Shown: one piece after another, positions 36,154 through 64,000 of the stretch | Position numbering within the stretch: the stretch's first letter is position 1 | How the letters are laid out: every line of letters begins with the position of its first letter | Assembly: GCA_043797085.1 (NCBI GenBank) | Contig: JAZDQA010000007.1 | Span: 1 to 64,000 of the forward strand | Source of the DNA: Pseudomonadota bacterium | GTDB lineage: Bacteria > Campylobacterota > Campylobacteria > Campylobacterales > Sulfurimonadaceae | Direction of reading: 5' to 3' | DNA: 64,000 nucleotides | Position numbers and translations under genes: made by a program | Notes under the pieces: model-generated | What the model was told of the DNA's origin: nothing | Seen by the model: only the letters and a program-made list of their open reading frames with translations | Database searches by the model: none

Positions 36154-36171
36154 ACTGAATGAACATTCAGT
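36154..36171. promoter_or_regulatory. Palindromic operator downstream of the cysK -10
   Basis: ACTGAATG-AA-CATTCAGT; TAGAAT -10 at 36135-36140. Confidence 0.65.
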
Positions 36172-37177: not shown

Positions 37178-37178
37178 A

Positions 37179-37409
37179 ATGAGAGACAAACATTATCGAA
37201 GCGTCATCAAAGCAGTCTCCTGGCGAACAGTTGGAACGATTGATACGATGGTTATTTCCTATTTTGTAACCGGAAATTTAATCTGGGCTATCTCAATCGG
37301 ATCGATTGAAGTTCTTACGAAAATGGTCTTATATTATTTTCATGAACGAGCTTGGGACGCAACAAATTTTGGACGAATAAAGGTGGTCAAAAACGACTAT
37401 CAAATTTAG
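37179..37409 (+). CDS. DUF2061-family small membrane protein
   Basis: RS..KA.SWR..GT.DT and YYFHER.W signature. Confidence 0.85.
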   Translation: MRDKHYRSVIKAVSWRTVGTIDTMVISYFVTGNLIWAISIGSIEVLTKMVLYYFHERAWDATNFGRIKVVKNDYQI

Positions 37410-37417
37410 GAGTAACG

Positions 37418-38125: not shown

Positions 38126-38127
38126 TT

Positions 38128-38220
38128 ATGACTGTTTTATTGGCGATTTTGCGTCAAATATGCGGAGACGACTGTGCGTCGCAACGCGAGGACTTGGCCG
38201 ACTGGGCCTTATTTGTATGA
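38128..38220 (+). CDS. Putative 30-aa peptide
   Basis: GGAGG at 38117-38121, ATG at 38128, MTVLLAILRQICGDDCASQREDLADWALFV, TGA at 38218-38220. Confidence 0.45.
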   Translation: MTVLLAILRQICGDDCASQREDLADWALFV

Positions 38221-38229
38221 ATATTAATG

Positions 38230-38310
38230 AAAAAATCTGCCTCATAATGAGGCAAGCTTTAGTAGCCCAAGCGGCTAGCGTAGCTAAAGGGATTTTATTC
38301 CTTTGGCGTT
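38230..38310 (-). repeat. Repeat family A copy 2
   Basis: Reverse complement matches 16460-16537; plus strand carries GTAG followed by a hairpin. Confidence 0.85.
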
Positions 38311-38326
38311 TAAATAAGGAAATACT

Positions 38327-39235
38327 ATGACTGAAGAACAACTGACCCATCTTAAAGTATTGGAAGCGGAATCGATCCATATTATGCGTGAAGTCATTGC
38401 TGAATTTGAAAATCCGGCGATGCTTTATTCTATTGGGAAAGATTCCTCTGTGATGCTTCATTTGGCATTGAAGGCATTTTATCCTTCAAAGTTACCGTTT
38501 CCACTTTTGCATGTGGATACGACATGGAAATTTAAAGAGATGATCGAGTTTCGTGATCGACGTATCGAAGAACTTGGATTAACGCTGTTGACGCATGTGA
38601 ATCCTGAGGGAGTTGCAAAAGGGGTTACACCGTTTACTCATGGGAGTTCTGTTTACACGGATATCATGAAAACAGAGGGGCTTAAACAGGCGTTGAATGA
38701 GCATAAATTTGATGCTGTTTTCGGTGGAGCACGACGGGATGAAGAAAAAAGTCGTGCCAAAGAGCGGATTTATTCGTTCCGTGACAAAAATCATCGTTGG
38801 GATTCTAAGAAACAGCGTCCTGAATTGTGGAATATTTACAATGGGCGCATTCATAAAGGGGAGAGTATACGGGTGTTTCCGTTATCCAACTGGACAGAGC
38901 TTGATATTTGGCAATACATTTATCTCGAAGGGATCCCTCTTGTTCCTCTTTATTTTGCTGCGCCGAGACCTGTGGTCGAACGTGACGGGGTTAAAATAAT
39001 GGTCGATGACGAACGGTTTCCTCTGGAAGAGGGAGAAATCCCTGTTATCGAGAATGTTCGTTTTCGAACGCTGGGCTGTTATCCGTTGACGGGTGCGGTT
39101 GCTAGTGATGCAGTAACGCTTCCTGACATTATTCAGGAAATGTTGCTGACTAAAACGTCTGAGAGACAAGGTCGTTTGATCGATGCCGATCAGGCAGGCT
39201 CCATGGAGAAGAAAAAAATTGAAGGATATTTTTAA
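38327..39235 (+). CDS. cysD: Sulfate adenylyltransferase subunit 2
   Basis: [31 protein letters not shown]. Confidence 0.97.
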
Positions 39236-40641
39236 TGGCACATCAATCGGATTTGATAGCTTCAAATATTCAAAGCTATCTGCATGAACAAGAACATAAA
39301 GAGCTGTTGCGTTTTATAACGTGCGGCAGTGTCGATGACGGCAAAAGTACTTTAATCGGAAGACTTTTACACGATTCCAAAATGATTTTTGAGGATCAGC
39401 TCGAAAGCATTAAAAATGACAGTAAAAAATCGGGGACGACAGGGGATAGAATCGATCTGGCACTCCTTGTGGATGGTCTTCAAAGTGAACGGGAACAGGG
39501 GATTACGATCGACGTAGCGTATCGCTATTTTTCGACCGATAAACGCAAATTTATTATTGCGGATACCCCTGGGCATGAGCAATATACGCGCAACATGGCT
39601 ACGGGTGCATCGACGGCAGATTTGGCGATTATCTTGATTGATGCTCGATACGGGATTGTGACGCAGACGCGCCGCCACTCGTTTATTGTTCGTCTTTTAG
39701 GGATTCGCAATGTCGTTGTTGCGATTAACAAAATGGATCTCTTGAAATATGACCAGGATGTGTTTGAAAAAATTGATACTGAGTATCGTGCATTTGCAAA
39801 AGAACTTGGGATAGAGAAAATTTATTCAGTACCGATGTCTGCGCTGGAGGGGGATAACGTTGTTACCCGCAGTGTTCATACTCCATGGTATGAGGGTAAG
39901 ACATTAATAGAACATCTCGAAGAGGTTCCTTTGTCTGCGCCATCGCCGGATGCACCGTTTCGAATGGCGATCCAGTATGTCAACCGTCCCAATCTCGATT
40001 TCAGAGGATTTGCCGGGACGATTGCTTCGGGAAGTATCGGTGTTGGTGAGAGTATAACGGTATTGCCGTCGGGGAAAAATGCTACGGTCAAAGCAATTGT
40101 GACGTATGACGGCGATTTAGAATCAGCATCTACCGCGCAAGCGATAACGTTGACACTGAATGAAGAGATCGATATCAGCCGTGGAAATATAATCATTAAA
40201 ACAGGTGCACCCATCAGTGTTTCGGATGCGATTACGGCAAATCTCGTTTGGATGGATGAAGAGCCCTTTCGTTTAGGGAAAAGCTATTTATTTAAAAGAG
40301 CGTCAACGGTTACCTCTACTGTAGTAGAGGGGATTGATTATCGTGTTGATGTCAATACTCAGGTCCGACAGGCTGCTCATGAATTGGGACTCAATGATAT
40401 TGGTTCGGTTCGTCTGGTATTGGGATCACCTTTGGTCTTTGATACGTATGAAGAAAATCGTCAAACGGGAGGATTTATCCTGATTGACAAAATTACCAAC
40501 AACACAGTTGCTGCGGGAATGATTACCGGCAGTACTCAAAAAGAGGCTAAAAAAGTAGGTGGAGCGTCCGAGTTCGAGGTAGAATTCAACGCCCTTGTTC
40601 GACGTCATTTCCCTCATTGGAATGCACAAATTGTTACATAA
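39235..40641 (+). CDS. cysN: Sulfate adenylyltransferase subunit 1 (no fused CysC)
   Basis: GSVDDGKST, EREQGITID, DTPGH, NKMD. Confidence 0.96.
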   Translation: MAHQSDLIASNIQSYLHEQEHKELLRFITCGSVDDGKSTLIGRLLHDSKMIFEDQLESIKNDSKKSGTTGDRIDLALLVDGLQSEREQGITIDVAYRYFSTDKRKFIIADTPGHEQYTRNMATGASTADLAIILIDARYGIVTQTRRHSFIVRLLGIRNVVVAINKMDLLKYDQDVFEKIDTEYRAFAKELGIEKIYSVPMSALEGDNVVTRSVHTPWYEGKTLIEHLEEVPLSAPSPDAPFRMAIQYVNRPNLDFRGFAGTIASGSIGVGESITVLPSGKNATVKAIVTYDGDLESASTAQAITLTLNEEIDISRGNIIIKTGAPISVSDAITANLVWMDEEPFRLGKSYLFKRASTVTSTVVEGIDYRVDVNTQVRQAAHELGLNDIGSVRLVLGSPLVFDTYEENRQTGGFILIDKITNNTVAAGMITGSTQKEAKKVGGASEFEVEFNALVRRHFPHWNAQIVT

Positions 40642-40651
40642 GGAGTAACGA

Positions 40652-42238
40652 ATGGCTTCAGAAACAAAAGCGCAGCGTGTTGAGCGAATCAAAAGCGAAA
40701 AAGACGGATTGGATGTTTTAGACGATATTGCCCGTTATGCGATAAGCGGGGAGGAAATCGACTCCGAAGATATCGACCGTTTTAAATGGTACGGTTTGTA
40801 TACGCAGAATAAAAATCTTCAAGGTCCTGAAGATGAGACTCTCTATTTTATGCTTCGTATTAAAGTAGAAGGTGGCTATCTCAATCGCGAGCAGTTAGCA
40901 GAGATCGGGAAAATATCCAAAGAGTTGGCACGGGATACGGCGGATTTGACAACACGCCAGGACATCCAATTTCACTGGATCAAAGTGACGGATCTTCCGC
41001 AAATTTTCACCCGATTGGCTGCCGTTGGACTTAGTACCATCGAAGCCGCAGGAGATTGTCCACGTAATATCGTCTGCTGTCCGGTAAACGGTATCGATAA
41101 AGACCAAGTCGATGATGTCCGTGATCTGGTCGATGCATTGAATGATTTGTACCGAGAGAATAGGGCGTTTTCCAATCTTCCTCGAAAGTTCAAGGTTGGG
41201 GTGAGCGGGTGCAGCAAGCATTGTCTCTCGCATGAAGTTCAGGATTTGACCTTTACGGCGGTTAAACGTCAAAATGGCGGGATAGAGTTCAGTGTCAGCG
41301 TTGGAGGCGGGCAGGCGAGCAATCGTCGTATCGCAGATCATATCGGATATATCCAGCGTAAAGATGTGGTTGCAATCGCTGAGTCAGTTGCTAAAATTTA
41401 CCGTGATTATGGACGACGTGATAACCGATTAAAAGCACGATTAGGACACCTGATAGAGGATTGGGGTGTTGAGCGTTTTGTGAACGAGCTTGAAAAAGAT
41501 TCGGGCGTGACGTTTGATCCGTATGATCATGCAGCGTTTACTCCGTATCCTCGTCGGAGTCATTTTGGAATATTTGAGAGTACAAAAGAGGGATACAACA
41601 CCATCGGATATGCGATTACCAGTGGACGCATCGGCGGTGAGCGATTGCTCTCATTGGGAAATATTCTCGAATTTTACGGTGCAGAGGGAATTTCACTGAC
41701 GACGACGCAAAACATTGTTGTTCAAGGAGTTCCCTCCGAGGCGACCAAAGCATTTACGGAAACACTGGAAGCGTCATTAGGACTGGAAGCAAATCCATCG
41801 GTCTTTGAAGCACGGACTCTGGCCTGTACGGGACTGAATTTTTGTAAGTTTGCGGTGAGTGAAACCAAAAATCTTGCAATTGAGGTTGTGGCGCATTTGA
41901 AAAGTCGATTTAAAGGTTTTAGCGAGCCTATCAGCATCAGTATCAACGGATGTCCCAATGCCTGTGCGCATCCTCACATCGTCGATCTTGGATTTGTCGG
42001 GTCGATTGTAAAACGTGATGAAGAAAAATTCAAAGGGTTTGATTTGATCGTCGGAGGCCATCTCGAAGGAGAAGAAAGCCGTTTTGCAGTGAAAACCGGT
42101 GTCAAGGTCACTTCGGATGAAGTCGCACCTCTGATTGAATCCTTGATTCAGGAGTATGAGTCGAGTCAAAGCCGTGATTTTGGAAATTTTTTATTGGAGA
42201 AGTATCGTCATGAGCCAACTATTCCGACCGCTTCTTGA
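40652..42238 (+). CDS. Ferredoxin-type sulfite/nitrite reductase (siroheme)
   Basis: TTRQ, LPRKFK, CTGLNFC, GCPNAC; lies in the cys operon, so likely a sulfite reductase. Confidence 0.9.
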   Translation: MASETKAQRVERIKSEKDGLDVLDDIARYAISGEEIDSEDIDRFKWYGLYTQNKNLQGPEDETLYFMLRIKVEGGYLNREQLAEIGKISKELARDTADLTTRQDIQFHWIKVTDLPQIFTRLAAVGLSTIEAAGDCPRNIVCCPVNGIDKDQVDDVRDLVDALNDLYRENRAFSNLPRKFKVGVSGCSKHCLSHEVQDLTFTAVKRQNGGIEFSVSVGGGQASNRRIADHIGYIQRKDVVAIAESVAKIYRDYGRRDNRLKARLGHLIEDWGVERFVNELEKDSGVTFDPYDHAAFTPYPRRSHFGIFESTKEGYNTIGYAITSGRIGGERLLSLGNILEFYGAEGISLTTTQNIVVQGVPSEATKAFTETLEASLGLEANPSVFEARTLACTGLNFCKFAVSETKNLAIEVVAHLKSRFKGFSEPISISINGCPNACAHPHIVDLGFVGSIVKRDEEKFKGFDLIVGGHLEGEESRFAVKTGVKVTSDEVAPLIESLIQEYESSQSRDFGNFLLEKYRHEPTIPTAS

Positions 42239-43514
42239 GGCCGGCGACAAATATTCCCAGATAATCGGCAAGACGATTGGGACACATAAAAAACATTATT
42301 TTGATTATACGGCATCGGGTCTAGCATACGAGCCTATCGAAGAGCGCATTCGCGAAGTCCTTGAAACGTATGCAAACACCCATTCCAAAGAGGCGTCAAT
42401 GGCGGCCAAGACGGACAGTTATTACCGTCAGGCACGCGAACATTTGAAAACGCTGTTAGAATTGGATGACGGATTCGCTATTATTCCTAGTGGATGTGGG
42501 GCGACGGCTGCGGTAAAGCGGTTGCAAGAAATTTTGGGATTGTATATTCCTCCTGCAACACGGGCACGTTATCTTGGGTTAGATACGGCAAAGTTACCGC
42601 TAGTCATCGTAGGACCGTATGAACATCATTCCAATGAAATCAGTTATCGCGAAGCCTTGTGTGAAACGATACGAATTGGTCTGAACGAGAATGGATTGGT
42701 GGATTTAGAAGAATTAGAATGGATATTACGAGCCAATAAAGATCGTGAAATCATCGGTACGTTTTGCATCGCCTCCAATGTGACGGGGACGATTACACCG
42801 TATGCTGAGATTTCGGTATTGCTACGCCGTTACGGTGCAACGGTTTGTTTTGACGCCGCCGCATCGTCACCGTATCGAAATATTCCGTGCGAACTGTATG
42901 ATGCGATGGTCTTTTCCCCGCATAAACTTCTCGGCGGTCCTGGATCGTGCGGATTACTTGCCATACGGAAAAATCTGTTTGATGGTGACCATTCTCCTAC
43001 GTTTGCAGGAGGAGGAACGGTGAGCTATGTGAGCCGTAAGAGCCACACGTTTGTCGATGAAATCGAAGATCGTGAGGATGCCGGAACCCCAGGGATTTTA
43101 CAATTGATTCGTGCGGCATTGTCGTATCAGCTGCGTAATGAATTGGGATTTGAGTGGATCGCATCATCAAAGAAAAAATTGCATTCACATCTCGTCAAAG
43201 AGCTTCGAACGATTCCGGGGGCAGAGTGTTATGGATGTCGAAATGCGGAAAATATCGGTATCGTGTCGTTTAATATTCATAATGTTGACCCTTACGCACT
43301 GTGTGCGTTTTTATCGGATGAAGAGGGATTTCAAACACGTGCGGGATGTTCGTGTGCGGGTCCTTATGGACACGATCTATTAGGGTTGGGGGATGATGAA
43401 CTGCTGGCTTTTAAACCGGGTTGGCTTCGTATCACTATCCATTATTCGCAGACGATTGAGGATGTAGATGCTCTGATCGATGCGATCAAAAAATCAATAA
43501 GGAGGCTCGAATGA
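42210..43514 (+). CDS. Class V PLP aminotransferase / cysteine desulfurase-like protein
   Basis: DYTASG, EHHSN, SPHK (PLP Lys), RAGCSCAGP; start moved to MSQLF (42210). Confidence 0.88.
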   Translation: MSQLFRPLLEAGDKYSQIIGKTIGTHKKHYFDYTASGLAYEPIEERIREVLETYANTHSKEASMAAKTDSYYRQAREHLKTLLELDDGFAIIPSGCGATAAVKRLQEILGLYIPPATRARYLGLDTAKLPLVIVGPYEHHSNEISYREALCETIRIGLNENGLVDLEELEWILRANKDREIIGTFCIASNVTGTITPYAEISVLLRRYGATVCFDAAASSPYRNIPCELYDAMVFSPHKLLGGPGSCGLLAIRKNLFDGDHSPTFAGGGTVSYVSRKSHTFVDEIEDREDAGTPGILQLIRAALSYQLRNELGFEWIASSKKKLHSHLVKELRTIPGAECYGCRNAENIGIVSFNIHNVDPYALCAFLSDEEGFQTRAGCSCAGPYGHDLLGLGDDELLAFKPGWLRITIHYSQTIEDVDALIDAIKKSIRRLE

Positions 43515-44308
43515 AAACAAATGACAAAACGTTAGTAGACGAGTCTGCTGATGAAGTTACCCATAAGAAGGGAAAAGTATATCTTGTAGGCTGCGGACTA
43601 GGTGACGTCGAACTGCTGACACTCAAAGCTGCGCGGATTATCAAAGAAGCACCGGTGATTTTGTATGATCATCTCATCAGTGCTGAGATTTTAGTATTGA
43701 TTCCAAAAAAGAGTCAAAAAATTTACGTAGGGAAAGAAAAAAGCCGTCACAGTATTTCTCAAGAAGAGATCAATGCGTTGATTGTTACCTATGCGAACGA
43801 AGGATTGGATGTTGCCCGACTCAAAAGCGGCGATCCCTATATCTTCGGACGGGGCACGGAAGAGGCCCTTTATCTGATCGAACGAGGGTATGAAGTCGAT
43901 GTGATTCCCGGAATATCTTCTTCGGTAGCAGGGAGTGCCTGTGCAGGTATCCCACCAACCGCGCGAGGATATGCAGCAAGTTTTTCGGTGGTATCGGCAC
44001 ATCTGAAAAATTCGAAGTTTAACAATGACTGGCTTCCGCTCTTGTTACTGCCCAATCATACGACCGTTATCCTCATGGGGCTGAGTGTTGCAAGAGAGAT
44101 CAAAGAAGCTGCTTTGGCACTGGGAGTCAATGGCGATTTACCCGCCGCTATTGTTTCGAATGCATCGCGTCCGAATCAAAGGACGATCGTGACGACTCTG
44201 CAAAATCTCGAAGAAGCTGCAAGTGGGGCACAAAGCCCTGCGGTAATCGTCTTTGGAGATGTTGTTCATCTTCAGGGACGTTTGCCATCTTATTCAAACG
44301 GCCTATGA
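43511..44308 (+). CDS. cobA: Uroporphyrinogen-III C-methyltransferase
   Basis: VYLVG.G.GD.ELLT, RLKSGDP.IFGRG. Confidence 0.92.
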   Translation: MKTNDKTLVDESADEVTHKKGKVYLVGCGLGDVELLTLKAARIIKEAPVILYDHLISAEILVLIPKKSQKIYVGKEKSRHSISQEEINALIVTYANEGLDVARLKSGDPYIFGRGTEEALYLIERGYEVDVIPGISSSVAGSACAGIPPTARGYAASFSVVSAHLKNSKFNNDWLPLLLLPNHTTVILMGLSVAREIKEAALALGVNGDLPAAIVSNASRPNQRTIVTTLQNLEEAASGAQSPAVIVFGDVVHLQGRLPSYSNGL

Positions 44309-45058
44309 TTCGATGTAGTAACCAAGCCCCATGGCATTCTTAACCATGGCAACCGGCAGTTTCTTATTCAGTCTCCACATCAGTGTCCGTACATCATTGT
44401 GCGACTGATGCGCACTTCCCCACACAAAACGGATAATCTGATCAAAGTTCACAATACTTCCTACCTGAGCGATTAAAAGAGACATAAGTGCCCGCTCTTT
44501 TCTCGTCATTTTAATTTCAGCATTTTTATACAAAAGAGTAAAGTCTTTGACTTTGAATTGATAACAATTGCACAGATCGACCGTAGAAGTGTTGGAGTGT
44601 AAATTAAAAACTTTCATCTTTAATTCGTCATATTCCAGATGAAGCTGCTGCATGATACTGTTAGAAACTTTATGCTTTTTAAAACAGTGCAACGCACATT
44701 GAAGAGATGTATGCAAATTGATAGGCTCAAAAGGTTGGACTAGATAACAATACGGATGAGTCTTTTGTGCTTTAAAAAGAGTTGCATCATCTCCACTATT
44801 GCTAAGATAGATAAAAGGTACCTTTCCCTGCTTATCCAAAAAACGCCCTAAAGATAGACTCTCATTGGGCGAGAGAGGATCAATTTGGATAAGTACAACA
44901 TCTGGATTGTAGTCTCTAAGTGAGTTTTCCAGATTTTTCGTTGTAGCTGAACTAAAAAAAAGCTGATAACCATAGGAATCAAGAGAATGCTGTAACGATA
45001 AAACCTCTGTTTCGTTGTCCCCTACTACAAGAACGTTCGTGTTGCTCAAAATATCCAT
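44303..45058 (-). CDS. Pseudo-receiver plus OmpR-type winged-helix regulator
   Basis: REC-like fold lacking the phospho-Asp (VVLIQID) and Lys (YLVQP); C-terminal TRKE..L..L, VRTLMWRL, GLGY. Confidence 0.8.
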   Translation of the reverse strand: MDILSNTNVLVVGDNETEVLSLQHSLDSYGYQLFFSSATTKNLENSLRDYNPDVVLIQIDPLSPNESLSLGRFLDKQGKVPFIYLSNSGDDATLFKAQKTHPYCYLVQPFEPINLHTSLQCALHCFKKHKVSNSIMQQLHLEYDELKMKVFNLHSNTSTVDLCNCYQFKVKDFTLLYKNAEIKMTRKERALMSLLIAQVGSIVNFDQIIRFVWGSAHQSHNDVRTLMWRLNKKLPVAMVKNAMGLGYYIES

Positions 45059-45102: not shown

Positions 45103-45131
45103 ATTATAGTGAATGATCGTTCATTTGTCAA
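45103..45131 (-). promoter_or_regulatory. Sigma70-type promoter with an operator in its spacer
   Basis: Minus strand TTGACA (45131-45126), 17 bp, TATAAT (45108-45103); spacer contains TGAATGATCGTTCA (45110-45123). Confidence 0.75.
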
Positions 45132-45229
45132 TGAATCAGCTATGTTTTAGTAGTATCGAAAGCATTTAATTTCATTTTTGCTATTGTTTTTTTAAGAGTA
45201 GCGGTATAGAATGCTGTAATGATTTGAAG

Positions 45230-45243
45230 TGAATATAGGTTCA
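45230..45243. promoter_or_regulatory. Candidate TetR operator upstream of tetR
   Basis: TGAATATAGGTTCA downstream of TAGAAT (45207-45212). Confidence 0.6.
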
Positions 45244-45284
45244 TTCCATAAGTGATAAAAACGTGATAGAAAGCAGACACTAAA

Positions 45285-45899
45285 ATGAAAAATATTCCAG
45301 AAAAACCCGCCACGACAAAAAAAGAAGATCGTAAAACATCCATAATGCAAACAGCGTTAAAGCTTTTCTCCACAGAAGGGTTTTATACGACAACGATGCC
45401 AGCCATTGCTAAAACATTGGGGATGAGTGTTGGAAATTTTTATAATTATTTTGCTTCAAAAGATCAGCTGGCAAAAGAGTTAATGCTGTACATTTCTACC
45501 GTTTTAGGCGATAAACTACGAGAAATCAACATGACGGATGCATCGGTAAAAGAAAAAATCACGATGATTGTTCACATGTATTTTAGCATCGCACGGGAGC
45601 GTCCTGAGCTTATCGAATATTTTTTACGTGTTTTTCTTTCCAATCGGGAAATATTTACAAAAGAGTGTACCGGAATGGTATGTGTCTCCGGTTTTGTAAC
45701 AGAGTTGATGCTGTTTTTTGACGATGGAGTACAAAGCGGAGAGTTAAAAGATCAGGATTTCTTTAGTGCTTTGGGACTCTTTATGGGATATTTGGGGGGA
45801 ATGGTCTTTTTAAACGGGGAAGAGGTTCTCACACATCCATTGGGTGAATACGAAACCGCCATAGCAGAGAACATCTACAATGCTCTGCGAAAACAATGA
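45285..45899 (+). CDS. TetR/AcrR family transcriptional regulator
   Basis: ALKLF..GF..TT...IAK.LG.SVG.FYNYF.SK HTH. Confidence 0.93.
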   Translation: MKNIPEKPATTKKEDRKTSIMQTALKLFSTEGFYTTTMPAIAKTLGMSVGNFYNYFASKDQLAKELMLYISTVLGDKLREINMTDASVKEKITMIVHMYFSIARERPELIEYFLRVFLSNREIFTKECTGMVCVSGFVTELMLFFDDGVQSGELKDQDFFSALGLFMGYLGGMVFLNGEEVLTHPLGEYETAIAENIYNALRKQ

Positions 45900-46780
45900 A
45901 GCCACGGATCAAAGTTTTATGGCTCCAAGGGGTGACCTGCAACGGTAACACCCACTCTTTTTTGAATTATCCTCATCTCTCTTACCTCCTCGAAACGTTT
46001 GAATTTCTCTATCATTCTCTTTTGCCCTGTACCTATACGCTCAAAGAGATTTCGACCTGCGCGCATACCTGTGATATTCTCATTTTTGAGGGAGCGTATG
46101 ACCCTCGTATGGAGCGTGTAGGGACGAGTTTGGAAACATTGGTTCACCATTATGGAAACCATGCGCAGTATGTGATAGCAGCCGGAAGCTGTGCGAGTTT
46201 CGGGGGGATGTTTAAACACAGTGATCCTGAACATATTACGGGACTTGGCTTTGATGAAAAAGAGCCAAAAGGTCCTCTCGCAAACAGTCCAAAGCTGATT
46301 AATCTCTCAGGCTGTCCGATCCATCCGGAGTGGATGGGATATACCCTTCGTATGATTGCGGATAAGAAACCCATAGCAGTGGATGAGTTGCATCGCCCCA
46401 AAGAGCTTTATTCCTATTTGGCGCATCATGGATGTACTCGAAATGAATATTTTGAATGGAAGGTCGATTCAAAATATTTTGGTACCAAAGAGGGGTGTTT
46501 GTTTTACAAGCAAGGATGCCGTGGTCCGATGACGCATGCTTCGTGTAATAAAATATTGTGGAATGACGTGAGTTCTAAAACGCGAGCAGGAACTCCTTGT
46601 TTTGGGTGTACGGAACCTGATTTTCCGCGAGTTAATATGTTTGATACCAAAACCAATATGTCGATTCCACAGGATGTTCCGGTGGGGATTTCCAAGCGAA
46701 GTTATTTAACCATGGCGGGTATCGCAAAATCATTTCACATACCGCGCTTAGAGAAGAGGCTGATCGATGATGACGCGTAA
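45896..46780 (+). CDS. Cytoplasmic [NiFe]-hydrogenase small subunit (HupS/HupU-like, group 2d-like)
   Basis: No Tat leader; WLQGVTCNGN, GSCA, GCPIHP, HHGC, CLF..GC.GP, CFGC. Confidence 0.88.
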   Translation: MKPRIKVLWLQGVTCNGNTHSFLNYPHLSYLLETFEFLYHSLLPCTYTLKEISTCAHTCDILIFEGAYDPRMERVGTSLETLVHHYGNHAQYVIAAGSCASFGGMFKHSDPEHITGLGFDEKEPKGPLANSPKLINLSGCPIHPEWMGYTLRMIADKKPIAVDELHRPKELYSYLAHHGCTRNEYFEWKVDSKYFGTKEGCLFYKQGCRGPMTHASCNKILWNDVSSKTRAGTPCFGCTEPDFPRVNMFDTKTNMSIPQDVPVGISKRSYLTMAGIAKSFHIPRLEKRLIDDDA

Positions 46781-48074
46781 ATGGATCGAACGGATTGAAG
46801 GAGAAGCTTCGATTGGATTTGAATTTGAAGAGAATAAAGTCTCTTTTGCCAGCATTGCTTTTCCCCATTTTCGAGGGATGGAGGCGATTTTACAGTCAAA
46901 ACCTGCTATGGATGCGCTGGTGATTACTCCTCGCGTCTGCGGGATATGCGGACATTCGCATTTGTTTGCGGCAGTTCGAGCCATCGAATCGGTGTATGCC
47001 AACAGCGGTTTTCCTCTCGAAATATCTCCTAAAGCCCAAATCTTGCGAGAACTTACCCTCTCGCTGGAGCTGATACAAAATCACTTTAAATGGCTTTATA
47101 TGGTGATTTATCCGGAATTGTCTCATTTGCTTCAACGTCCTATTGCTGATTCGTGTCGGCTTAAGGGTGCGTATGCGGCATCTCTTGCGACCAAAATACT
47201 CGCTATTTTCGCCGGACAATGGCCTCACTCCTCGTACATGATACCCGGAGGCGTGACGTGCGATCCTACGTATGTTGATACGATGCGTGCGATGGCGTTG
47301 CTGGATGAACTGGTTCGATGGTTTGAAAAAGAGCTGATCGGTATTTCACTGGCGGAGTATCTCAATATATCCTCTGCAAAAGATCTTTCTTATGTAAATG
47401 GCGATATGCGCGACATCGATAAAATGCTTCGTACTGCCAAGATGCATAAACAGGGTTTTTCGTATGATCGCTATATGGTGTTAGGAAATCATGGATTTTC
47501 TAATCCTTCAAAATATATGAACCGACGGATGGCAAAAGTCAATCCACAATTGGTAACGCTGGAAGATCCTTATACCGTGGATGAAAAAACCTACGCTAAA
47601 AATGCTCTTTATCAAAATAACGCGTTTGAAACCGGTCCATTAGCACGTGCCATTACCAATGGAGTCCCATTTATCAAACATCTGCACCGCAGTTTTCGCG
47701 ACAGTACTTATACTCGTATCATGGCAAGAAGTTACGAAACAGCGCTGCTTTTGAATCATTGTAAAACGCTTTTGCACTCGATAAAGATAGATGAACCGTC
47801 GTTTATTGAACCCCACAAAAAAATCACTTCCCTCAGCGGAGAGGGTATGGGCATTGTCGAAGCACCAAGAGGTCCATTGATCCATAAAGTGACGCTAAAC
47901 AAGGGGATAATCGATCACTATACCCTGATAACACCCACCCAATGGAATCTTTCATGCGGTTCCCCTCAAACCCCAGGACCTGCTCAAAAAGCCATGATAG
48001 GGGCGGATTCTATCGAGACTGCGACGTTTACTTTTCGGTCATTTGATGTTTGTTCGGTTTGTACGACGCACTAA
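46767..48074 (+). CDS. Cytoplasmic [NiFe]-hydrogenase large subunit (HupL/HupV-like)
   Basis: RIEG, L1 RVCGIC, L2 DVCSVCTTH followed by stop (no cleavable tail). Confidence 0.9.
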   Translation: MMTRKWIERIEGEASIGFEFEENKVSFASIAFPHFRGMEAILQSKPAMDALVITPRVCGICGHSHLFAAVRAIESVYANSGFPLEISPKAQILRELTLSLELIQNHFKWLYMVIYPELSHLLQRPIADSCRLKGAYAASLATKILAIFAGQWPHSSYMIPGGVTCDPTYVDTMRAMALLDELVRWFEKELIGISLAEYLNISSAKDLSYVNGDMRDIDKMLRTAKMHKQGFSYDRYMVLGNHGFSNPSKYMNRRMAKVNPQLVTLEDPYTVDEKTYAKNALYQNNAFETGPLARAITNGVPFIKHLHRSFRDSTYTRIMARSYETALLLNHCKTLLHSIKIDEPSFIEPHKKITSLSGEGMGIVEAPRGPLIHKVTLNKGIIDHYTLITPTQWNLSCGSPQTPGPAQKAMIGADSIETATFTFRSFDVCSVCTTH

Positions 48075-48110
48075 ATTAAATTGCAAATTGTAGCCACTAA
48101 AAGATTTATC

Positions 48111-48186
48111 CTCGTTCCCACTCTCCTGAGTGGGAATGCATACAAGCGTAAAAACAAACGCTCCAACTCAGGAGAGTAGGAGCGAG
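48111..48186. repeat. REPIN-like inverted repeat
   Basis: 28-nt arms CTCGTTCCCACTCTCCTGAGTGGGAATG and CGCTCCAACTCAGGAGAGTAGGAGCGAG. Confidence 0.7.
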
Positions 48187-48209
48187 AAGTATTTCAAAAA
48201 GGTATTAAG

Positions 48210-48803
48210 ATGATTACCAACAACATGGACGTATTCGCCGAGAAATTCGAGGGCGTTGATCTGCACGGCAAAAAGATTACCAAAGCCGAATTCGATGACT
48301 GCACCTTCGTCTCGTGCGATTTTAGCGAAACCTTTTTTTCTTCTTGTAAATTTACCGAATGCCGTTTCGAAAACTGCAATCTGAGTGTGATGAAACTGAC
48401 GAACACCAAAATGAGCGATGTTGAGTTTGTCTCGTGCAAGATGATCGGGATCGATTGGACGATGGCGGATTGGAAGAGTTTACTCAATGCCGATCCCTTG
48501 CGTTTTCGGGAATGTATCCTCAATGATAGCAATTTTTTCGGTCTGAACTTGGAAGGGTTGGTTATGCGGGAGTGCCGAGCCAAAGAGGTTGATTTTCGCA
48601 ATGGGTCGTTTCAAAAAGCCGATTTTACCCTGAGCGATTTCAAAGGGGCGCTGTTCGGGAATACCCATCTCGAAGGGGCGAACTTTACCGACTCCTCGAA
48701 CACCTCTATCGATGTGCGCTCCAACCATCTTAAGGGGGCTATTTTCAACCGTTATGAGGCACTGTTTCTCCTCGAATCGATGGGGATAATATTAGTAGAT
48801 TAA
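48210..48803 (+). CDS. Pentapeptide repeat protein
   Basis: Regular [ACT]-x-F-x-x pentapeptides throughout. Confidence 0.92.
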   Translation: MITNNMDVFAEKFEGVDLHGKKITKAEFDDCTFVSCDFSETFFSSCKFTECRFENCNLSVMKLTNTKMSDVEFVSCKMIGIDWTMADWKSLLNADPLRFRECILNDSNFFGLNLEGLVMRECRAKEVDFRNGSFQKADFTLSDFKGALFGNTHLEGANFTDSSNTSIDVRSNHLKGAIFNRYEALFLLESMGIILVD

Positions 48804-48918
48804 ATATCTCTTCTCCGTCTTATTTCTCCTTTTTTGTCCTATAATTAAACAAGAAATAAAGAATTTCAATTAAATCTTATCTTTTAAATATTCGTTTAAG
48901 TTATTTCGCCGTACTATA

Positions 48919-48932
48919 TGAATGATTATTCA
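48919..48932. promoter_or_regulatory. Candidate TetR operator upstream of hydA
   Basis: TGAATGATTATTCA immediately after a TACTAT -10 (48912-48917). Confidence 0.65.
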
Positions 48933-48952: not shown

Positions 48953-50191
48953 ATGTCCGATAGAGTTGAAGCGGTTAAAAAACTGTTTACGTCGAAAAGC
49001 TCGCGTGTCGAAACGAACAAAGGCGATACTTATTATCAAGAGTTGTTTGTTCGATGTGAAGCACGACTGAACGAACTGCGTGCGAATACACCTGCAAATA
49101 GATTAGATTTTGCGGATCTTTTAGAAGAAAACGGAATAGACAGACGAGAGTTTATGAAATGGGCGAGTGCTACGACAGCTATGTTGATGCTTCCTCCTAT
49201 GTTTACGCCATTGATTGCGGATGCGGCAGTGATGATGAATCGCGCACCGGTTATTTGGCTCGAACTTCAAGACTGTGCGGGTAATTCTGAAGCGCTTTTA
49301 CGTGCAGATGGACCGAAAATCGATGAAATCGTACTGGATATCATCTCACTGGAATACCATGAGACGTTGCAAGCAGCATCCGGTCATCAAGCTGAAAAAC
49401 AGCTAGAAGAAGCGATGGAGCATTTCAAAGGTAAATATATTTTATTCGTAGAGGGCTCAATCCCTATGGGGATGGACGGTCAATACGGAACCATCGGCGC
49501 AAGCGGTGAAACATTCCATGACCATTTAGTCCGTTGTGCTGCGAATGCTGCTGCGGTTGTTGCAGTTGGTAGCTGTGCGACGTTTGGCGGTGTTCCTGCT
49601 GCTTCTCCAAATCCTACGGGTGCAGTGGGAGTAATGGACGTTGTTAAAAACAAGCCGATTATCAATATCCCTGCCTGTCCTGCCAATCCTGCCAATATGG
49701 TTGGAGTAATCTTGCATTATCTTTTGACGGGTCAAGTTCCTGAACTGGATTCATTGTTACGTCCTAAGTTTGCGTTTGGGTATCGTATCCATGACAACTG
49801 TGAACGCCGTGCTCACTTCGATGCGGGTGAATACGTGGAAGAGTGGGGCGATACAGCTGCACAAAATAATTTTTGTCTCTATAAAATGGGGTGCAAAGGT
49901 CCTATGACGTTTAACAACTGTTCTATCGTGCGCTATAACGAAGCGGTCAACTGGCCAATCGGAGTAGGACGCGGTTGTATCGGTTGTTCAGAACCTGATT
50001 TTTGGGATAAATACGCGCATGAGCGCCCTATGGCGGATGCGAAAATCAAAGCACCTACGGGTGGTGTTGAAAAAACGGTTGACGAATTTGGTTTGGGCAT
50101 GTTGACTGCAGCGGGAATCGGGATTACGATCCATGCAGCAGCCAGTGCGGTAGCCGGTAAACGAGAAAAATCAGGAGAGAGCCATGAGTAA
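48953..50191 (+). CDS. hydA: Membrane-bound [NiFe]-hydrogenase small subunit (group 1)
   Basis: Tat motif DRREFMK, CAGN, GSCA, ACP, HDNCERR, CLYKMGCKGP, CIGC, C-terminal TM anchor. Confidence 0.94.
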   Translation: MSDRVEAVKKLFTSKSSRVETNKGDTYYQELFVRCEARLNELRANTPANRLDFADLLEENGIDRREFMKWASATTAMLMLPPMFTPLIADAAVMMNRAPVIWLELQDCAGNSEALLRADGPKIDEIVLDIISLEYHETLQAASGHQAEKQLEEAMEHFKGKYILFVEGSIPMGMDGQYGTIGASGETFHDHLVRCAANAAAVVAVGSCATFGGVPAASPNPTGAVGVMDVVKNKPIINIPACPANPANMVGVILHYLLTGQVPELDSLLRPKFAFGYRIHDNCERRAHFDAGEYVEEWGDTAAQNNFCLYKMGCKGPMTFNNCSIVRYNEAVNWPIGVGRGCIGCSEPDFWDKYAHERPMADAKIKAPTGGVEKTVDEFGLGMLTAAGIGITIHAAASAVAGKREKSGESHE

Positions 50192-51959
50192 GCATATTGT
50201 AGTTGACCCCATTACCCGTATCGAAGGGCATTTGCGCATCGAAGCGGTTATCGATGATAATAACACGATTGTGGATGCTTACAGCGCATCGACAATGTTC
50301 CGTGGGATTGAAACGATTTTGCAAGGGCGTGACCCACGTGACTGTGGACTTTTGGCAATGCGTATTTGCGGTGTTTGTACGGGGACGCACTATCAGCGCT
50401 CGATCGAAGCCGTTGAGGATGCGTTTAACATCACCATCCCTAAAAATGCTCGTTTGGTACGTAATTTGATTCAAGGTGCTTTGTATGTGCATGACCATGT
50501 CGTTCACTTTTATCATCTTCATGCACTTGATTTCGTGGATGTTGTTTCCGCTCTTTCGGCAGATCCTGCAAAAACTGCTGCAGAAGCACGAAAATGGGCA
50601 ACGGTTGCCGGCGAAACACCTTTTACCGATGGTGAAAGCGAATTTAAAGCGATCCAAGATCGTGTGGCAAAATTTGTAAAACAAGGTCGTTTGGGAATTT
50701 TCGGAAACGGATATTGGGGCAATCCTCACTATAAATTGACTCCGGAACAAAACCTTATCGGGGTTGCTCACTATTTGCAAGCGTTGGATATTCAGCGTGA
50801 TATGGCGAAAATGCAGGCGATTTTGGGCGGTAAAAATCCTCATCCTCAAAGCATTGTAGTTGGCGGGGTAACGTGTGTTCAGGATATTCAAAATCCTGCT
50901 CGTTTGGCACTGTTCAAATCGCTTCTTTTGGAAGGGCGTAAATTTGTCAAGCAGGCGTATTTACCTGACGTTTATATGGCGGGGACAATGTACGCAGGCG
51001 AGGCAACGGACTCTAAAGCAACATTTACCGAACTTATGGGCGGCAAAGGGGTTGGCGGAACCGGCGGCGGATTGCTCAACTACATGAGTTACGGTGATTT
51101 CCGTCTCGATGATACCGGTTTTTACAAATCGGCACTTCTCTTCCCAAGCGGAGTTGTGATGAATGGAGATGTTTCTAAAGTTCTTCCGTTGGATGAAGAA
51201 AAAATCGTTGAAGATGTGACGCACGCATGGTACAAAGGGGACAAACCTCTCCATCCGTATGACGGGCAGACGATTCCTGAATATACCGGTTTGGATAAAC
51301 GTGCCGATGGTATCGCGTATCTTAAAACCAAAGAAAAATACAGCTGGATCAAATCACCGATTTACAATGATTCTCGCGTTGAAGTAGGACCGTTGGCACG
51401 TATGGTTATCGGTGTTGCAGCAAAAGATGAGCGTATTACAAAATACGTCACCAACTTCTTGACGCGAGGGAATCTCCCGATTGCGGTGTTGTTTAGTACG
51501 GTTGGACGTACAGCGGCACGTGCTATCGAGACGGAATTAATGGCAGATGTCATGGTGGAATGGATCGATGAACTGGCTAAAAATGTTGCATCTGGAGATA
51601 AAAGCACATGGACAGAGTTTGACTTTGATGCAGTGAGCGTCAGTGCAAAAGGTCGCGGGATGGCAGAAGCTCCTCGTGGAGCACTGGGTCACTGGGTTCG
51701 TATTGAAAACGGAAAAGTAGCCAACTATCAAGCCGTCGTCCCCTCAACATGGAATGCCGCTCCGCGTGACCACAAAGGGCGTTTAGGTGCGTATGAAGCA
51801 AGTTTGATCGGAACCAAAGTTGCCAATCCTGAGCAACCGCTTGAGATTATACGTACCATTCACAGTTTTGACCCTTGTATCGCATGTGCGGTTCACGTTG
51901 TCGATACCAAAGGTAAAGAGCTTGCTGTTTACAAAGTAGATACTGTTTGCAGTATTTAA
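50184..51959 (+). CDS. hydB: [NiFe]-hydrogenase large subunit (group 1)
   Basis: DPITRIEGH, RICGVC, DPCIACAVH plus 20-aa C-terminal extension. Confidence 0.96.
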   Translation: MSKHIVVDPITRIEGHLRIEAVIDDNNTIVDAYSASTMFRGIETILQGRDPRDCGLLAMRICGVCTGTHYQRSIEAVEDAFNITIPKNARLVRNLIQGALYVHDHVVHFYHLHALDFVDVVSALSADPAKTAAEARKWATVAGETPFTDGESEFKAIQDRVAKFVKQGRLGIFGNGYWGNPHYKLTPEQNLIGVAHYLQALDIQRDMAKMQAILGGKNPHPQSIVVGGVTCVQDIQNPARLALFKSLLLEGRKFVKQAYLPDVYMAGTMYAGEATDSKATFTELMGGKGVGGTGGGLLNYMSYGDFRLDDTGFYKSALLFPSGVVMNGDVSKVLPLDEEKIVEDVTHAWYKGDKPLHPYDGQTIPEYTGLDKRADGIAYLKTKEKYSWIKSPIYNDSRVEVGPLARMVIGVAAKDERITKYVTNFLTRGNLPIAVLFSTVGRTAARAIETELMADVMVEWIDELAKNVASGDKSTWTEFDFDAVSVSAKGRGMAEAPRGALGHWVRIENGKVANYQAVVPSTWNAAPRDHKGRLGAYEASLIGTKVANPEQPLEIIRTIHSFDPCIACAVHVVDTKGKELAVYKVDTVCSI

Positions 51960-51969
51960 GGAGCCAATC

Positions 51970-52680
51970 ATGAAACAGGGGTATACACAAGTCAAACGTA
52001 TGACACCCGCCATGCGCATTATTCATTGGGTAAATGCGATCTGTATGGTTGGAGCCGTCATCACAGGTCTTTATATCGGACATCCGTACTATCAGACGTT
52101 CATAGCGGATGGTGCGGTCGATAAGTATGTTATGGCGTGGAACCGTTATGGACATTTTATTATCGCGATTATTTTTGACGTTACATCGGTCATCATCGCG
52201 TATTTGTATTTTTTCAGCCGATTTGAAAAGCCGTATAAAAAGCTTATTCCGAATGGGAAAAATATTACCGAATTTAAAGCGGTATTGGTCAATCTCTTAA
52301 CGTTAAATCGTAAAAAAGAGTTTGATTCCTCCCATGCGGACAGTTTCAATACCGTTTATTTTACGATTTTTCATATACTTTTGATATGGATGCTTTTTAC
52401 AGGGCTTCAATTGTATGTGCATGGATTGGCGTCTGGAATCAGTTCTATTGGAGCATGGTGGCCGTGGATGCTTCATCTTGTGACAGACTGGACAATTCCT
52501 ATTACAGGCGGAAGTTTGATGGATGTTCGTATGGCTCACCATCTTACCATGTGGTTGATCGTATGCTGGGTCGTGTTTCATATATATTACCAAGTGTGGA
52601 GAACCATTTTCTGGAAAGAGGCGGATATCGCCATTGTTATCGGCGGATCTAAGTTTGTTAAAGACGATACACTAGATTAG
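51970..52680 (+). CDS. hydC: Hydrogenase b-type cytochrome subunit
   Basis: RIIHW and TM helices with heme-ligand His residues; follows hydB. Confidence 0.92.
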   Translation: MKQGYTQVKRMTPAMRIIHWVNAICMVGAVITGLYIGHPYYQTFIADGAVDKYVMAWNRYGHFIIAIIFDVTSVIIAYLYFFSRFEKPYKKLIPNGKNITEFKAVLVNLLTLNRKKEFDSSHADSFNTVYFTIFHILLIWMLFTGLQLYVHGLASGISSIGAWWPWMLHLVTDWTIPITGGSLMDVRMAHHLTMWLIVCWVVFHIYYQVWRTIFWKEADIAIVIGGSKFVKDDTLD

Positions 52681-52842: not shown

Positions 52843-54765
52843 ATGGCATTTACGTTAGAGGTTCTTACCTCTTTTTCTCAACCTACGATTAAAAATTATT
52901 TGATTGCGATTATCCGTACATTCGGGATTAAAGCCGTTGTTCATCAACAAAAAACAAAAATTATTTGTGCTTTTGATAGTAATGATGAAAAACTCCAAGC
53001 GTGTCTGGAAGCGATCGGTACCAATCTTCCTGCATCGTGTTTCATGAGTAAAAGTGAGTTTTACGACATCGAGGGAGAACCCCAAACGGTTCCCGATTTC
53101 GAGGTAGAATATCCGGTTGCTTTGGGATTGTGTCCTGCTTGTCAAAAAGAGATGTTTGACCCTTCCTCAAAGCGGTACTATTACCCCTTTACTCACTGTA
53201 CCCATTGCGGGGGGCAATACGCTTTTTTCGATCATTATCCTTACGAGCGACGTAATACCTCCTTTTCCTATCTGAAACCGTGTGCTACGTGTGAGCGCGA
53301 ATCCGTCAGTTTTGGACGACGAGAAAAACAGGTATTAAACTCCTGTCACGAGTGCGGTATTCCAGTAAAACTGACCCATAAAGGCAATGAACGCTACGCC
53401 AACGATGCAGGAAGTTTTCGCACGATGTTTGAAGTTGCGGCGAAAGCATTACGCGACGGTAAAACACTTTTGATGAAAACGACGATGGGGTATCGGCTCT
53501 TTTATCGTGCGGATAAACTGGAACAAGGTTCGGTTTTAATGCTGACCAATGCGATGAAAATCACAGAGTATTGTTCTCTCATCCATGATGAATTTAATGC
53601 ACTGCTGAGTATCGAGCGTCCGATTTTACACGTGGCACTCAAAGATGAAACCCTGCGAAGTACGTTTGGCTCAACCATCGATGTCAAATATCCTGATGAG
53701 GGATTTTCGATTTTACTGGGGAAAGAGTTGACACTTTTAGGACTTGATTTCATCGTCTATAAGGCATTGGAAGCACCGTGTAATGCGGATTTTTTGATGG
53801 ACTTTGATTTAAACATCCAGTCGCAAAGCGATATGCGTCTTTTTATCAACAAAGAGGTGAAGTTTATCGCTTCGGGTGAGCGTGTTTCCTTTCCTGCACG
53901 TCTCCCATTTGGTACCGATACCCTTAGTATTGCCAATGGATTGGTAGGCATTAAAGATGAAAAAGGGATGCTGTTTGATCAGATGGAACGTTTTTCTTCG
54001 GCTTCCACGCTCAAAGTCAATCAGCTCGAAACCGAAATCCCTACCGTCCAATCCGCTAATTTTCACACGATGGCGGAAGATGAAGCGTCGTTTATGTCAG
54101 TCATTGCCGAGCATAACAAATTTGGAACCAAAATCGTCGGAGCTTATTTTGAAGGGGAACCGTCGTTTTTGTATTATGATGGGAAAAAAGTGATTCGAGT
54201 CGTCCCTCCTAAACCTTTTAGCGGTGTTGATCTGAGAGAAAAAATAGGGTCACTACGTGAGGGATCAAATCGGCTTATGGAAAATATCGAAAAGAAATTT
54301 CCTGAAATCTTTGAGGTTTTGTTAGTATTAGAAAAGAGCAATGCGACCCTTTTTGAAGCGACGGCGATGATTTTGGGACTGAAAGAAAAAAGCTATGAAG
54401 GGGTAATGAAAGAAGCGCTGAAGTTTATCGGTAAAGGGGGACTGCAAATCGATACCAAAGTGCATGACAACCGATTTAACCATGTTGCCTTTTTATCCAG
54501 TATCATCAGCTATAAAATAGCGGGTGTCGATTCAGTCTATTTGAGTTATTCTATCTTCGAATCATTTGGGGATTATTTCAGCGAACTTCTCACAGAGATT
54601 AGAGGGAAAACCAAGGCAACCGATATTGTTCTTTGCGGATCGTATTTCGCGGGACAATCGCTCTTTAGCCGTCTACAGAGAAATTTGAAGGCAACCCCTG
54701 TGCTGATGAATATGAATTACCCCATTGGGAAGGAAAACTGCGTTGTTGGTGGAGTCTACTTATAA
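52843..54765 (+). CDS. HypF-like protein with zinc fingers but degenerate catalytic domains (HydE-like)
   Basis: CPAC..RYYYPFTHCTHCG, CATC, CHECG; lacks VQGVGFRP, QHH.AH and DGTG; ends like HypF (NYPIG.ENC..G). Confidence 0.7.
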   Translation: MAFTLEVLTSFSQPTIKNYLIAIIRTFGIKAVVHQQKTKIICAFDSNDEKLQACLEAIGTNLPASCFMSKSEFYDIEGEPQTVPDFEVEYPVALGLCPACQKEMFDPSSKRYYYPFTHCTHCGGQYAFFDHYPYERRNTSFSYLKPCATCERESVSFGRREKQVLNSCHECGIPVKLTHKGNERYANDAGSFRTMFEVAAKALRDGKTLLMKTTMGYRLFYRADKLEQGSVLMLTNAMKITEYCSLIHDEFNALLSIERPILHVALKDETLRSTFGSTIDVKYPDEGFSILLGKELTLLGLDFIVYKALEAPCNADFLMDFDLNIQSQSDMRLFINKEVKFIASGERVSFPARLPFGTDTLSIANGLVGIKDEKGMLFDQMERFSSASTLKVNQLETEIPTVQSANFHTMAEDEASFMSVIAEHNKFGTKIVGAYFEGEPSFLYYDGKKVIRVVPPKPFSGVDLREKIGSLREGSNRLMENIEKKFPEIFEVLLVLEKSNATLFEATAMILGLKEKSYEGVMKEALKFIGKGGLQIDTKVHDNRFNHVAFLSSIISYKIAGVDSVYLSYSIFESFGDYFSELLTEIRGKTKATDIVLCGSYFAGQSLFSRLQRNLKATPVLMNMNYPIGKENCVVGGVYL

Positions 54766-54860
54766 ACTAACGTTACACACTTTCCGAGCAAAGCCCGCAA
54801 AGTGGCAGGGACAAATGTCCCTACAACCCCCTAAAGCTACCCGTATCTTTCGAATACGGG
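54764..54860 (+). repeat. Repeat family B copy 2
   Basis: GTTAC.CACT..GAGCAAAGCCC..AGTGGCAGGGACAAA.GTCCCT..CCCCCTAAAGCTAC plus terminal hairpin; matches 30883-30975 (reverse). Confidence 0.82.
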
Positions 54861-54873
54861 AGAAGAACTATTT

Positions 54874-57135: not shown

Positions 57136-57192
57136 CGAGCTATTGTCATTCCCGCGTAGGCGGGCGAAGTGCCCGTTAGGGTGAATCCAGCT
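57108..57192. repeat. Pair of CGTC-type REP palindromes, the second interrupted by a 19-nt insertion
   Basis: GGATCCCCGGGTCAAGCCCGAGGATGACG, then GTCATTCCCGCGTAGGCGGG[CGAAGTGCCCGTTAGGGTG]AATCCAGCT. Confidence 0.78.
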
Positions 57193-57215
57193 AAATTTTA
57201 CACTAAAGGAAAAAA

Positions 57216-63910: not shown

Positions 63911-64000
63911 TAAAGTATTGTATCACGAAGAAAATCAAACTGTAGTCCTAAAAATAAATAAGAAGATTATTTTTTTAGTTTCTTTTTATTCTATTGTCTT

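Follow-up and report, generated by a model that had tools for sequence, protein, structure and literature searches.

The 64,000-nt window analyzed here (positions 1–64000 of contig C7, in a source genome of 2.40 Mb that is 96% complete) carries, upstream of the membrane-bound uptake hydrogenase genes hydABC, a tetR gene followed by hupS and hupL, which encode a cytoplasmic NiFe hydrogenase of group 2d type (HupSL). Comparison of this locus among related genomes makes it highly probable that the palindrome TGAAY-N4-RTTCA is the operator of this TetR clade and that TetR represses through it. We further propose, at a rough probability of 0.55 and on sequence grounds, that HupSL is an H2 sensor and TetR its output, with HupSL reporting H2 to the repressor and no kinase in between. 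The operator and the hydrogenase regulon that it defines in two phyla, Campylobacterota and Aquificota, are real, conserved and apparently undescribed; the adjacency of tetR and hupSL and a sensor role for group 2d enzymes were known before as suggestions.

The assignment of the box to this TetR comes from its distribution among hydA promoters. TetR was found in 38 of the 201 Campylobacterota genomes searched, HupL in 36 and HydA in 195, and a search of 81 Aquificota genomes gave HupL in 42 and a TetR match in 47 (3 of them fragmentary). The hydA promoters of Campylobacterota were taken from every one of the 37 other TetR-positive genomes and, of the ~157 TetR-negative ones, from 38: those 12 with listed coordinates that do not belong to the large families f2 and f3, and 26 picked within these two. 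They were scored with a matrix trained on 32 orthologous hydA sites from loci L001–L080, a box being called at 12 bits or more. A box was present in 30 of the 37 TetR-positive genomes (30 of 39 promoters) and in 0 of the 38 TetR-negative genomes, among which the best score was 5.7 bits, a contrast that these counts overstate because kin genomes are not independent. Removal of the four genomes that donated training sites leaves 26 of 33. The same split is observed within families (f1, 7/7 TetR-positive vs. 0/1 TetR-negative genomes; f7, 4/4 vs. 0/5; f11, 6/6 vs. 0/1; f12, 2/2 vs. 0/1), and one TetR-negative genome, G160, retains a half-eroded box at the place where its relatives have theirs. 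A second footprint is provided by a nickel-transporter-like gene, present in 16 of 53 genomes searched, which is preceded by a box in 12 of 13 TetR-positive and 0 of 3 TetR-negative genomes. In addition, 47 distinct hydA promoters contain 44 −10-like hexamers whose last base is 1–3 nt 5′ of the box; the box thus lies over the predicted transcription start, the position of a repressor. Only two TetR domains are encoded in the source genome, and the other one differs in its recognition helix and lacks a box. These distributions support the original prediction that the box belongs to this TetR and would control the uptake hydrogenase; conservation in orthologous promoters, a check proposed with it, was found in both phyla.

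An opposing view would treat the palindrome as part of the promoter, or as the target of some other regulator, that merely co-occurs with TetR. The box does abut the −10 hexamer, most tetR orthologs have no autoregulatory box, and in some genomes TGAACA-N2-TGTTCA precedes an unrelated TetR. However, the absence of the palindrome from every one of the TetR-negative hydA promoters and its half-eroded state in G160, its presence in two phyla before different hydA types, and its occurrence at the promoters of paralogous TetRs that share the recognition helix make this explanation very unlikely.

Within the window, TGAATnnnnRTTCA gives six strand matches at four sites, compared with 0.87 expected, and 0 of 100 shuffles reach six; the four boxes originally predicted, at 36156, 45110, 45230 and 48919, are all present. 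Genome-wide there are nine such sites, five of them within C7:36156–64027. The five top sites of a matrix scan of the genome are 45110, 48919, C7:64014, 36156 and C3:23184, of which 48919 matches by construction; five shuffled genomes yielded 12–24 sites at 12 bits and 0–6 at 15 bits. The description of a four-site regulon was therefore an undercount, since C7:64014 (upstream of a nickel-transporter-like gene and hypBCD) and C3:23184 (between a TonB receptor gene and nikR) also score 17–20 bits, and one of its members, 45230, is weak and falls inside the shuffle chance range at 10.3 bits, as do the lower-scoring sites C6:81319 and C11:223204. The 45110 box occupies the spacer of a minus-strand TTGACA-17-TATAAT promoter (45131–45103), the 48919 box begins 1 nt past TACTAT, and the 36156 and 45230 boxes begin ~15–17 nt past TAGAAT. 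An 18-bp palindrome, TGAATGA-N4-TCATTCA, centered 2 nt further right, was dropped because orthologs favor the 14-bp core. The window runs from a cys operon through an OmpR-like gene on the opposite strand to the overlapping tetR-hupS-hupL genes, a pentapeptide-repeat gene, hydABC and maturation genes, as follows; the cys, hyp, HypF-like, protease-like and nickel-transporter-like gene names rest on sequence features, and in the cys operon only the desulfurase was scanned.

36156–36169, no strand: operator box before cysK, 20.0 bits, kept in relatives; regulon member at genus level
36245–44308, plus strand: operon of cysK, cysH, cysD, cysN, sulfite reductase, cysteine desulfurase-like and cysG-like genes
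44303–45058, minus strand: OmpR-like regulator with Gln at the expected phospho-Asp (DVVLIQID), a local addition
45103–45131, minus strand: perfect TTGACA-17-TATAAT promoter of the OmpR-like gene, with a box in its spacer
45110–45123, no strand: operator box between the OmpR-like gene and tetR, the genome's strongest at 22.8 bits
45230–45243, no strand: weak operator box before tetR, 10.3 bits, with similar boxes in L001, L004 and L006
45285–45899, plus strand: tetR, for a repressor of the TetR family whose clade is narrow and highly conserved
45666–45683, plus strand: codons for the invariant pair C128-x4-C133, whose loop in the ligand domain is modeled at low confidence
45896–46780, plus strand: HupS, group 2d-type small subunit, no Tat leader, Fe-S ligands conserved
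46767–48074, plus strand: HupL, group 2d-type large subunit of 435 residues, NiFe ligands kept, no C-terminal extension
48210–48803, plus strand: pentapeptide-repeat gene, a local insertion outside the conserved module
48912–48932, plus strand: hydA −10 hexamer (TACTAT) and operator box over the predicted transcription start
48953–52680, plus strand: hydABC, membrane-bound uptake hydrogenase, the predicted main target
52843–58336, plus strand: genes following hydC, namely one HypF-like, hypF, and two resembling maturation-protease genes
63911–64000, plus strand: promoter region running off the window end
C7:64014–64027: fifth box, lying 14 bases outside the window and preceding a nickel-transporter-like gene and hypB-hypC-hypD

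Boxes recur in Campylobacterota before hydA, genes for nickel transporters (HupE/UreJ, CbiM and others), hypA, hypB, hypD and hypE, and in Aquificota before hydA of different types and before nickel-uptake and hyp maturation genes. A conserved regulon of uptake hydrogenase, nickel uptake and hyp maturation is thus predicted for both phyla. The tetR-hupSL promoter itself has a box in 11 of 73 cases (0 of 365 shuffles) and in 2 of 37, with strong autoregulatory tetR boxes mainly in Sulfuricurvum; that this promoter is mostly box-free is expected of a standing sensor. A regulon so rich in HupE/UreJ, CbiM, hypA and hypB, with one further box at the nikR/TonB receptor pair, might also be that of a nickel (metal) sensor, in which TetR would bind Ni through its cysteine pair and match hydrogenase synthesis to metal supply. 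This is very unlikely: the box precedes both the Ni importers and the Ni-consuming hydrogenase, although opposite regulation of the two would be expected of a metal sensor, the genome already has a NikR-like gene, and the dependence on HupSL would be left unexplained. The box at C3:23184, between the genes for the TonB-dependent receptor and the NikR-like protein, is kept in the close relative L279, and a TetR–NikR link is possible.

Sulfate assimilation, also assigned to TetR by the original prediction, holds within Sulfuricurvum, in which the cys box is retained (L002–L004, L008, G174, G286 and G290, the cys and hydrogenase genes lying on different contigs in G174), but not as a conserved regulon member. 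No cys box of at least 10 bits was found within 1.5 kb of cysH in nine TetR-positive genomes outside the genus, a search by which more distant promoters could be missed; L016 has no cys box, and in G071 a box lies at the far end of the cys operon and is shared with hypB. With the cys box seen only in Sulfuricurvum, sulfate assimilation was removed from the core regulon. Similarly, the second regulator that had been placed under TetR does have a box in its promoter here, but it is a local pseudo-receiver protein that adjoins tetR in only 4 of 80 loci, all in the closest relatives, and was removed as well, as was the pentapeptide gene, a local insertion by comparison of tetR loci. The OmpR-like protein has two paralogs of 34–37% identity in the genome (C7:98864–99610 and C4:114106–114852).

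TetR matches PF00440 at 55.4 bits (cut-off 24), and its model, with a predicted local distance difference test (pLDDT) value of 85.9, matches TetR proteins in Foldseek at template modeling (TM) scores of up to 0.80, which places it in the TetR/AcrR family, with an N-terminal helix-turn-helix and a wholly helical ligand domain. It is 92–97% identical to proteins from Sulfuricurvum-type metagenome-assembled genomes (MAGs) and belongs to a narrow clade, with 12 representatives in a 50% identity library at E values of 1e-30 or better, fragments included. No characterized member of the clade was found by NCBIfam scan, fold search or ESM Atlas: no NCBIfam equivalog scored above its cut-off, ESM Atlas returned only generic TetR C-terminal clusters, and no TetR listed by the fold search exceeds ~21% identity. 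The ligand domain contains, as had been noted, a CTGMVC pair, and its cysteines, C128 and C133, are invariant (78/78, 37/37 and 12/12 rows, the first two sets overlapping slightly). The loop that holds them is poorly placed in the model (pLDDT 58–74), as might befit a loop ordered by a ligand or partner, and conservation is higher in the ligand-domain core (0.83–0.84) than in the helix-turn-helix (0.77). NemR and ComR are TetR regulators that sense redox state or metals through cysteines; they and this TetR have the TetR fold in common, with cysteine sensing a property of theirs and a proposal here. We know of no cysteine-based TetR sensor that controls a hydrogenase. Paralogous TetRs of 41–49% identity (G075, G136, G163, G165 and L173–L178) mostly have the same recognition helix and a box at their own promoter, and some adjoin ModE/ModA-like genes.

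The predicted overlap of tetR with hupS (ATGA) is present, and HupSL lacks a Tat leader and a cleavable C terminus, as had been noted. HupL ends three residues past its last CxxC in 60 of 61 rows (one being cut by a contig end) and in 36 of 36, here with CSVCTTH. Its ligands are kept throughout (C58 and C61 in 64/64 rows, C429 and C432 in 63/64, R368 and E11 in 64/64), as are the Cys/His ligands of HupS (68–69 of 69 rows), and the HupL model is a compact NiFe enzyme with a pLDDT of 91.7. The subunits here are of group 2 type, have no Tat leader and are encoded beside hydABC, and strong HupL profile matches are found in both phyla; the group 2d label itself rests on gene context and on published papers. 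Whole lineages (most of L056, L059 and L061–L070) have Gln or Lys in place of the terminal His of HupL, and the mean p-distance of HupL is 0.50, compared with 0.34 for TetR and 0.30 for HydB, sequence features that hint at relaxed catalytic constraint.

HupL occurs in 37 of the 201 Campylobacterota genomes (36 by search and G031 by tblastn), always beside TetR, and in 42 of the 81 Aquificota genomes, all among the 47 with a TetR match. In Aquificota, tetR and hupL are adjacent in 15 genomes, 10–20 kb apart in 6, more than 100 kb apart in 7, and on different contigs in 14. None of the 79 HupL-positive genomes is without TetR, and hydA-like genes are present in 195 of 201 Campylobacterota genomes, most of them without TetR. 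The occurrence of HupL thus depends on TetR one-way and beyond gene linkage. Mirror-tree correlations over 43 loci (TetR–HupL 0.88, TetR–HupS 0.82, TetR–HydB 0.58) are not counted as support, as linked genes of related genomes correlate anyway.

Known H2-sensing systems of a comparable kind are HoxBC-HoxJ-HoxA of Cupriavidus necator and HupUV-HupT-HupR of Rhodobacter capsulatus, whose sensors are, like HupSL, cytoplasmic two-subunit group 2 NiFe enzymes encoded beside the uptake hydrogenase genes thought to be under their control. Loss of hupUV in R. capsulatus reportedly gives constitutive expression. H2-sensing hydrogenases have an Ile/Phe gas-channel pair; at these positions in HupL, aligned by eye, Ile60 is invariant and the second residue is mostly Val or Thr. 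HoxC, like HupL, has no C-terminal extension in the extracts of PMC8229454, and those of PMC10073562 define the HoxBCJ/HoxA cascade. The output differs: group 2b sensors act through a histidine kinase and a σ54 activator, whereas the partner here is a linked TetR repressor at σ70-type promoters, with no kinase in the cluster (28 HisKA matches genome-wide, which were not compared with HoxJ, and 0 in C7:36–70 kb). As predicted, a HoxA/HupR regulator was not found genome-wide: of the only two strong σ54 activators, one is FlgR-like by its best NCBIfam hit, which scores under the cut-off, and the other is of GAF type and looks NifA-like on inspection. On the low H2-oxidizing activity and H2-dependent transcription that mark group 2b sensors, published reports for relatives of this system disagree. 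HupSL–TetR would work like HoxBC-type sensing, yet it lies outside group 2b, no HoxA having been found, and "one-component", the label that it had been given, ill fits a pairing of a sensor enzyme with a repressor. Huc of Mycobacterium smegmatis is a respiratory uptake enzyme of group 2a. It is the closest solved relative of both HupSL subunits (PDB 7UTD and 7UUR; E 5e-55 and 2e-40, TM 0.90), and its small subunit shares with HupS a C-terminal IPxxVP segment, but its large subunit has 513 residues to the 435 of HupL, at 23% identity.

The group 2d enzymes described so far in the extracts available (Hase III of Aquifex aeolicus, Hup2 of Hydrogenobacter thermophilus, HupSL of Sulfurospirillum multivorans and the Sulfurimonas denitrificans large subunit Suden_1437) are likewise cytoplasmic and encoded upstream of hydABC. 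Those extracts contain no operator, regulon or TetR–hydA link, in contrast to the box described here, which is mostly at hydA and mostly not at tetR-hupSL. In S. multivorans, tetR lies directly upstream of hupSL and was suggested as a possible hupSL repressor (Kruse 2017, PMC5357620). PMC4584964 passes on what Nakagawa 2007 and Sievert 2008 proposed, namely a sensor role and an anabolic one, PMC11406935 repeats the anabolic guess for group 2d, and the word TetR is absent from the extracts of PMC6682613 and PMC4584990. A full-text literature search found no published operator or regulon for this TetR, with subscription papers and curated regulon databases outside its scope, so that an earlier motif prediction is possible.

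The main alternative to H2 sensing by HupSL is that TetR represses the same regulon but acts as a sensor on its own, its cysteine pair responding to thiol redox or sulfane sulfur or holding an Fe-S site. HupSL would then be a catalytic companion or a target, with a part in recycling H2 or in supplying electrons of low potential. Several observations favor it or otherwise weigh against a sensor role. TetR, the box and a hydA-like gene persist with no HupSL found in at least four genomes (G187, G205, G235 and G276), so that hydA is usable in the absence of HupSL. Several Aquificota carry hupSL inside a box-controlled hypB operon, which makes hupSL also a target, and in Sulfuricurvum hupSL is again under a box. 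The cys, SQR/FccB-like and psrA-like genes likewise have boxes in front of them. Paralogous TetRs whose cysteine pair is shifted or lost adjoin selD-, rhodanese- and psrA-like genes with no group 2d hydrogenase alongside; this clade could represent the switch adapted to sulfur, selenium or molybdenum. The hydA box scores below 12 bits in all six f5 genomes (5.6–10.4 bits; most carry, in a shared location, a version with one base changed) and in f13 (11.2 bits). Because the HupL search missed G031, a copy in a TetR-negative genome could also be missed. Among published data, as far as the extracts go, uptake activity of S. denitrificans is about twofold lower with thiosulfate (PMC4149538), an anabolic role is the common guess for group 2d, hydB of S. 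multivorans rises only about twofold with H2, not significantly (PMC5357620), and there was no change at 25 µM H2 (PMC7490688). Sulfurospirillum MAGs carry the hydA box, the promoter of the S. multivorans strain itself not being among those scored.

Lone sensing by TetR is nonetheless the less likely reading in our view. A mere target should outlive its repressor, as hydA does, yet HupL is never found without TetR, even where the two genes are unlinked. Moreover, reported expression and soluble activity of group 2d enzymes are very low: in the extracts, hupL of S. multivorans is barely detectable (PMC5357620), S. denitrificans has no soluble uptake activity (PMC4149538), low expression is reported (bioRxiv 10.1101/717884), and A. 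aeolicus Hase III is hard to detect, with the group 2d role called unresolved and possibly regulatory (PMC10052474). One groundwater metatranscriptome contains near-identical contigs over hydABC and short pieces over tetR/hupSL, which can neither rank expression nor locate starts. A Sulfurovum-like symbiont shows more than 100-fold higher hydrogenase activity at an H2-rich site (PMC7174374, in extract), the presence of TetR there not being established. G204 retains a hupS remnant and a decayed box (8.9 bits), the only case of box decay following hupSL loss, and no NiFe large subunit was found in G215 and G226; of the genomes G187, G204, G205, G215, G226, G235 and G276, several may be incomplete.

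With HupSL as the sensor, the switch might operate as follows. A TetR dimer would bind TGAAY-N4-RTTCA over the uptake-hydrogenase, nickel-uptake and hyp promoters and repress them, and weakly expressed cytoplasmic HupSL would serve as the H2 input to TetR and not chiefly as an energy enzyme. H2 would reduce the Fe-S chain of HupSL, and reduced HupSL would change the state of C128/C133 (a thiol switch or a metal or Fe-S site), by contact or through a cytoplasmic carrier, upon which TetR would leave the DNA. Signaling by direct contact is a tentative proposal. The likelier polarity is that oxidized HupSL holds TetR in its binding state, with loss of hupSL leaving hydA on and being tolerated; this is favored because it explains how hupSL can be lost while TetR and the box stay. 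In Sulfuricurvum, the sulfate-assimilation operon would have joined the regulon, suiting growth on H2 without reduced sulfur. A wider version, which we hold doubtful but worth stating, is that group 2d enzymes are dedicated H2 sensors, with TetR receiving their redox state directly at its C-x4-C loop, a phosphorylation-free switch of the whole uptake and nickel-maturation program in both phyla and of sulfate assimilation in Sulfuricurvum.

Other genes are associated with the box in particular lineages. Five loci (L181, L197, L283, L288 and L289) have a box before short Aer/CetB-like PAS genes, which suggests that some Sulfuricurvum, and one further family, have brought energy taxis into the hydrogen regulon. 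In G297 (L281) a 17-bit box lies between nifA-like and thiol-peroxidase-like genes, and the same place here, C8:113751, has a weak one (9 bits); nitrogenase produces H2. An SQR/FccB-like flavoprotein gene stands in place of hupSL between tetR and hydA in L225 (G187), with two shared boxes, and such a gene also has a box in L171 (G177). A second, divergent hydAB pair in the source genome (C4:135913–138598, 47–48% identity) has no box upstream, and second hydA copies have three boxes in G159 and two in G065. A gene without a Pfam match, whose product has two CxxC motifs (63227–63910, minus strand), is divergent from a box-controlled nickel-transporter-like or hypB gene in many relatives, among them L161, L163–L166, L168, L189 and L192. 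The intergenic stretches 38230–38320, 48075–48210 and 54770–54870 match many unrelated contigs and are probably small mobile repeats.

Campylobacterota and Aquificota lineages are major primary producers at vents, in hot springs and in sulfidic groundwater, and papers on them, in the extracts available, call the role of group 2d enzymes unresolved and name no regulator of H2 uptake in their free-living members. A named repressor, its operator of 14 bp, the regulon predicted for it and its invariant cysteine pair turn this into a directly testable question. Should the sensor step fail, the operator would still define a hydrogenase regulon in two phyla; if it is true, HupSL and TetR would constitute a kinase-free route of H2 sensing, and the three genes an H2 switch useful as a biosensor.

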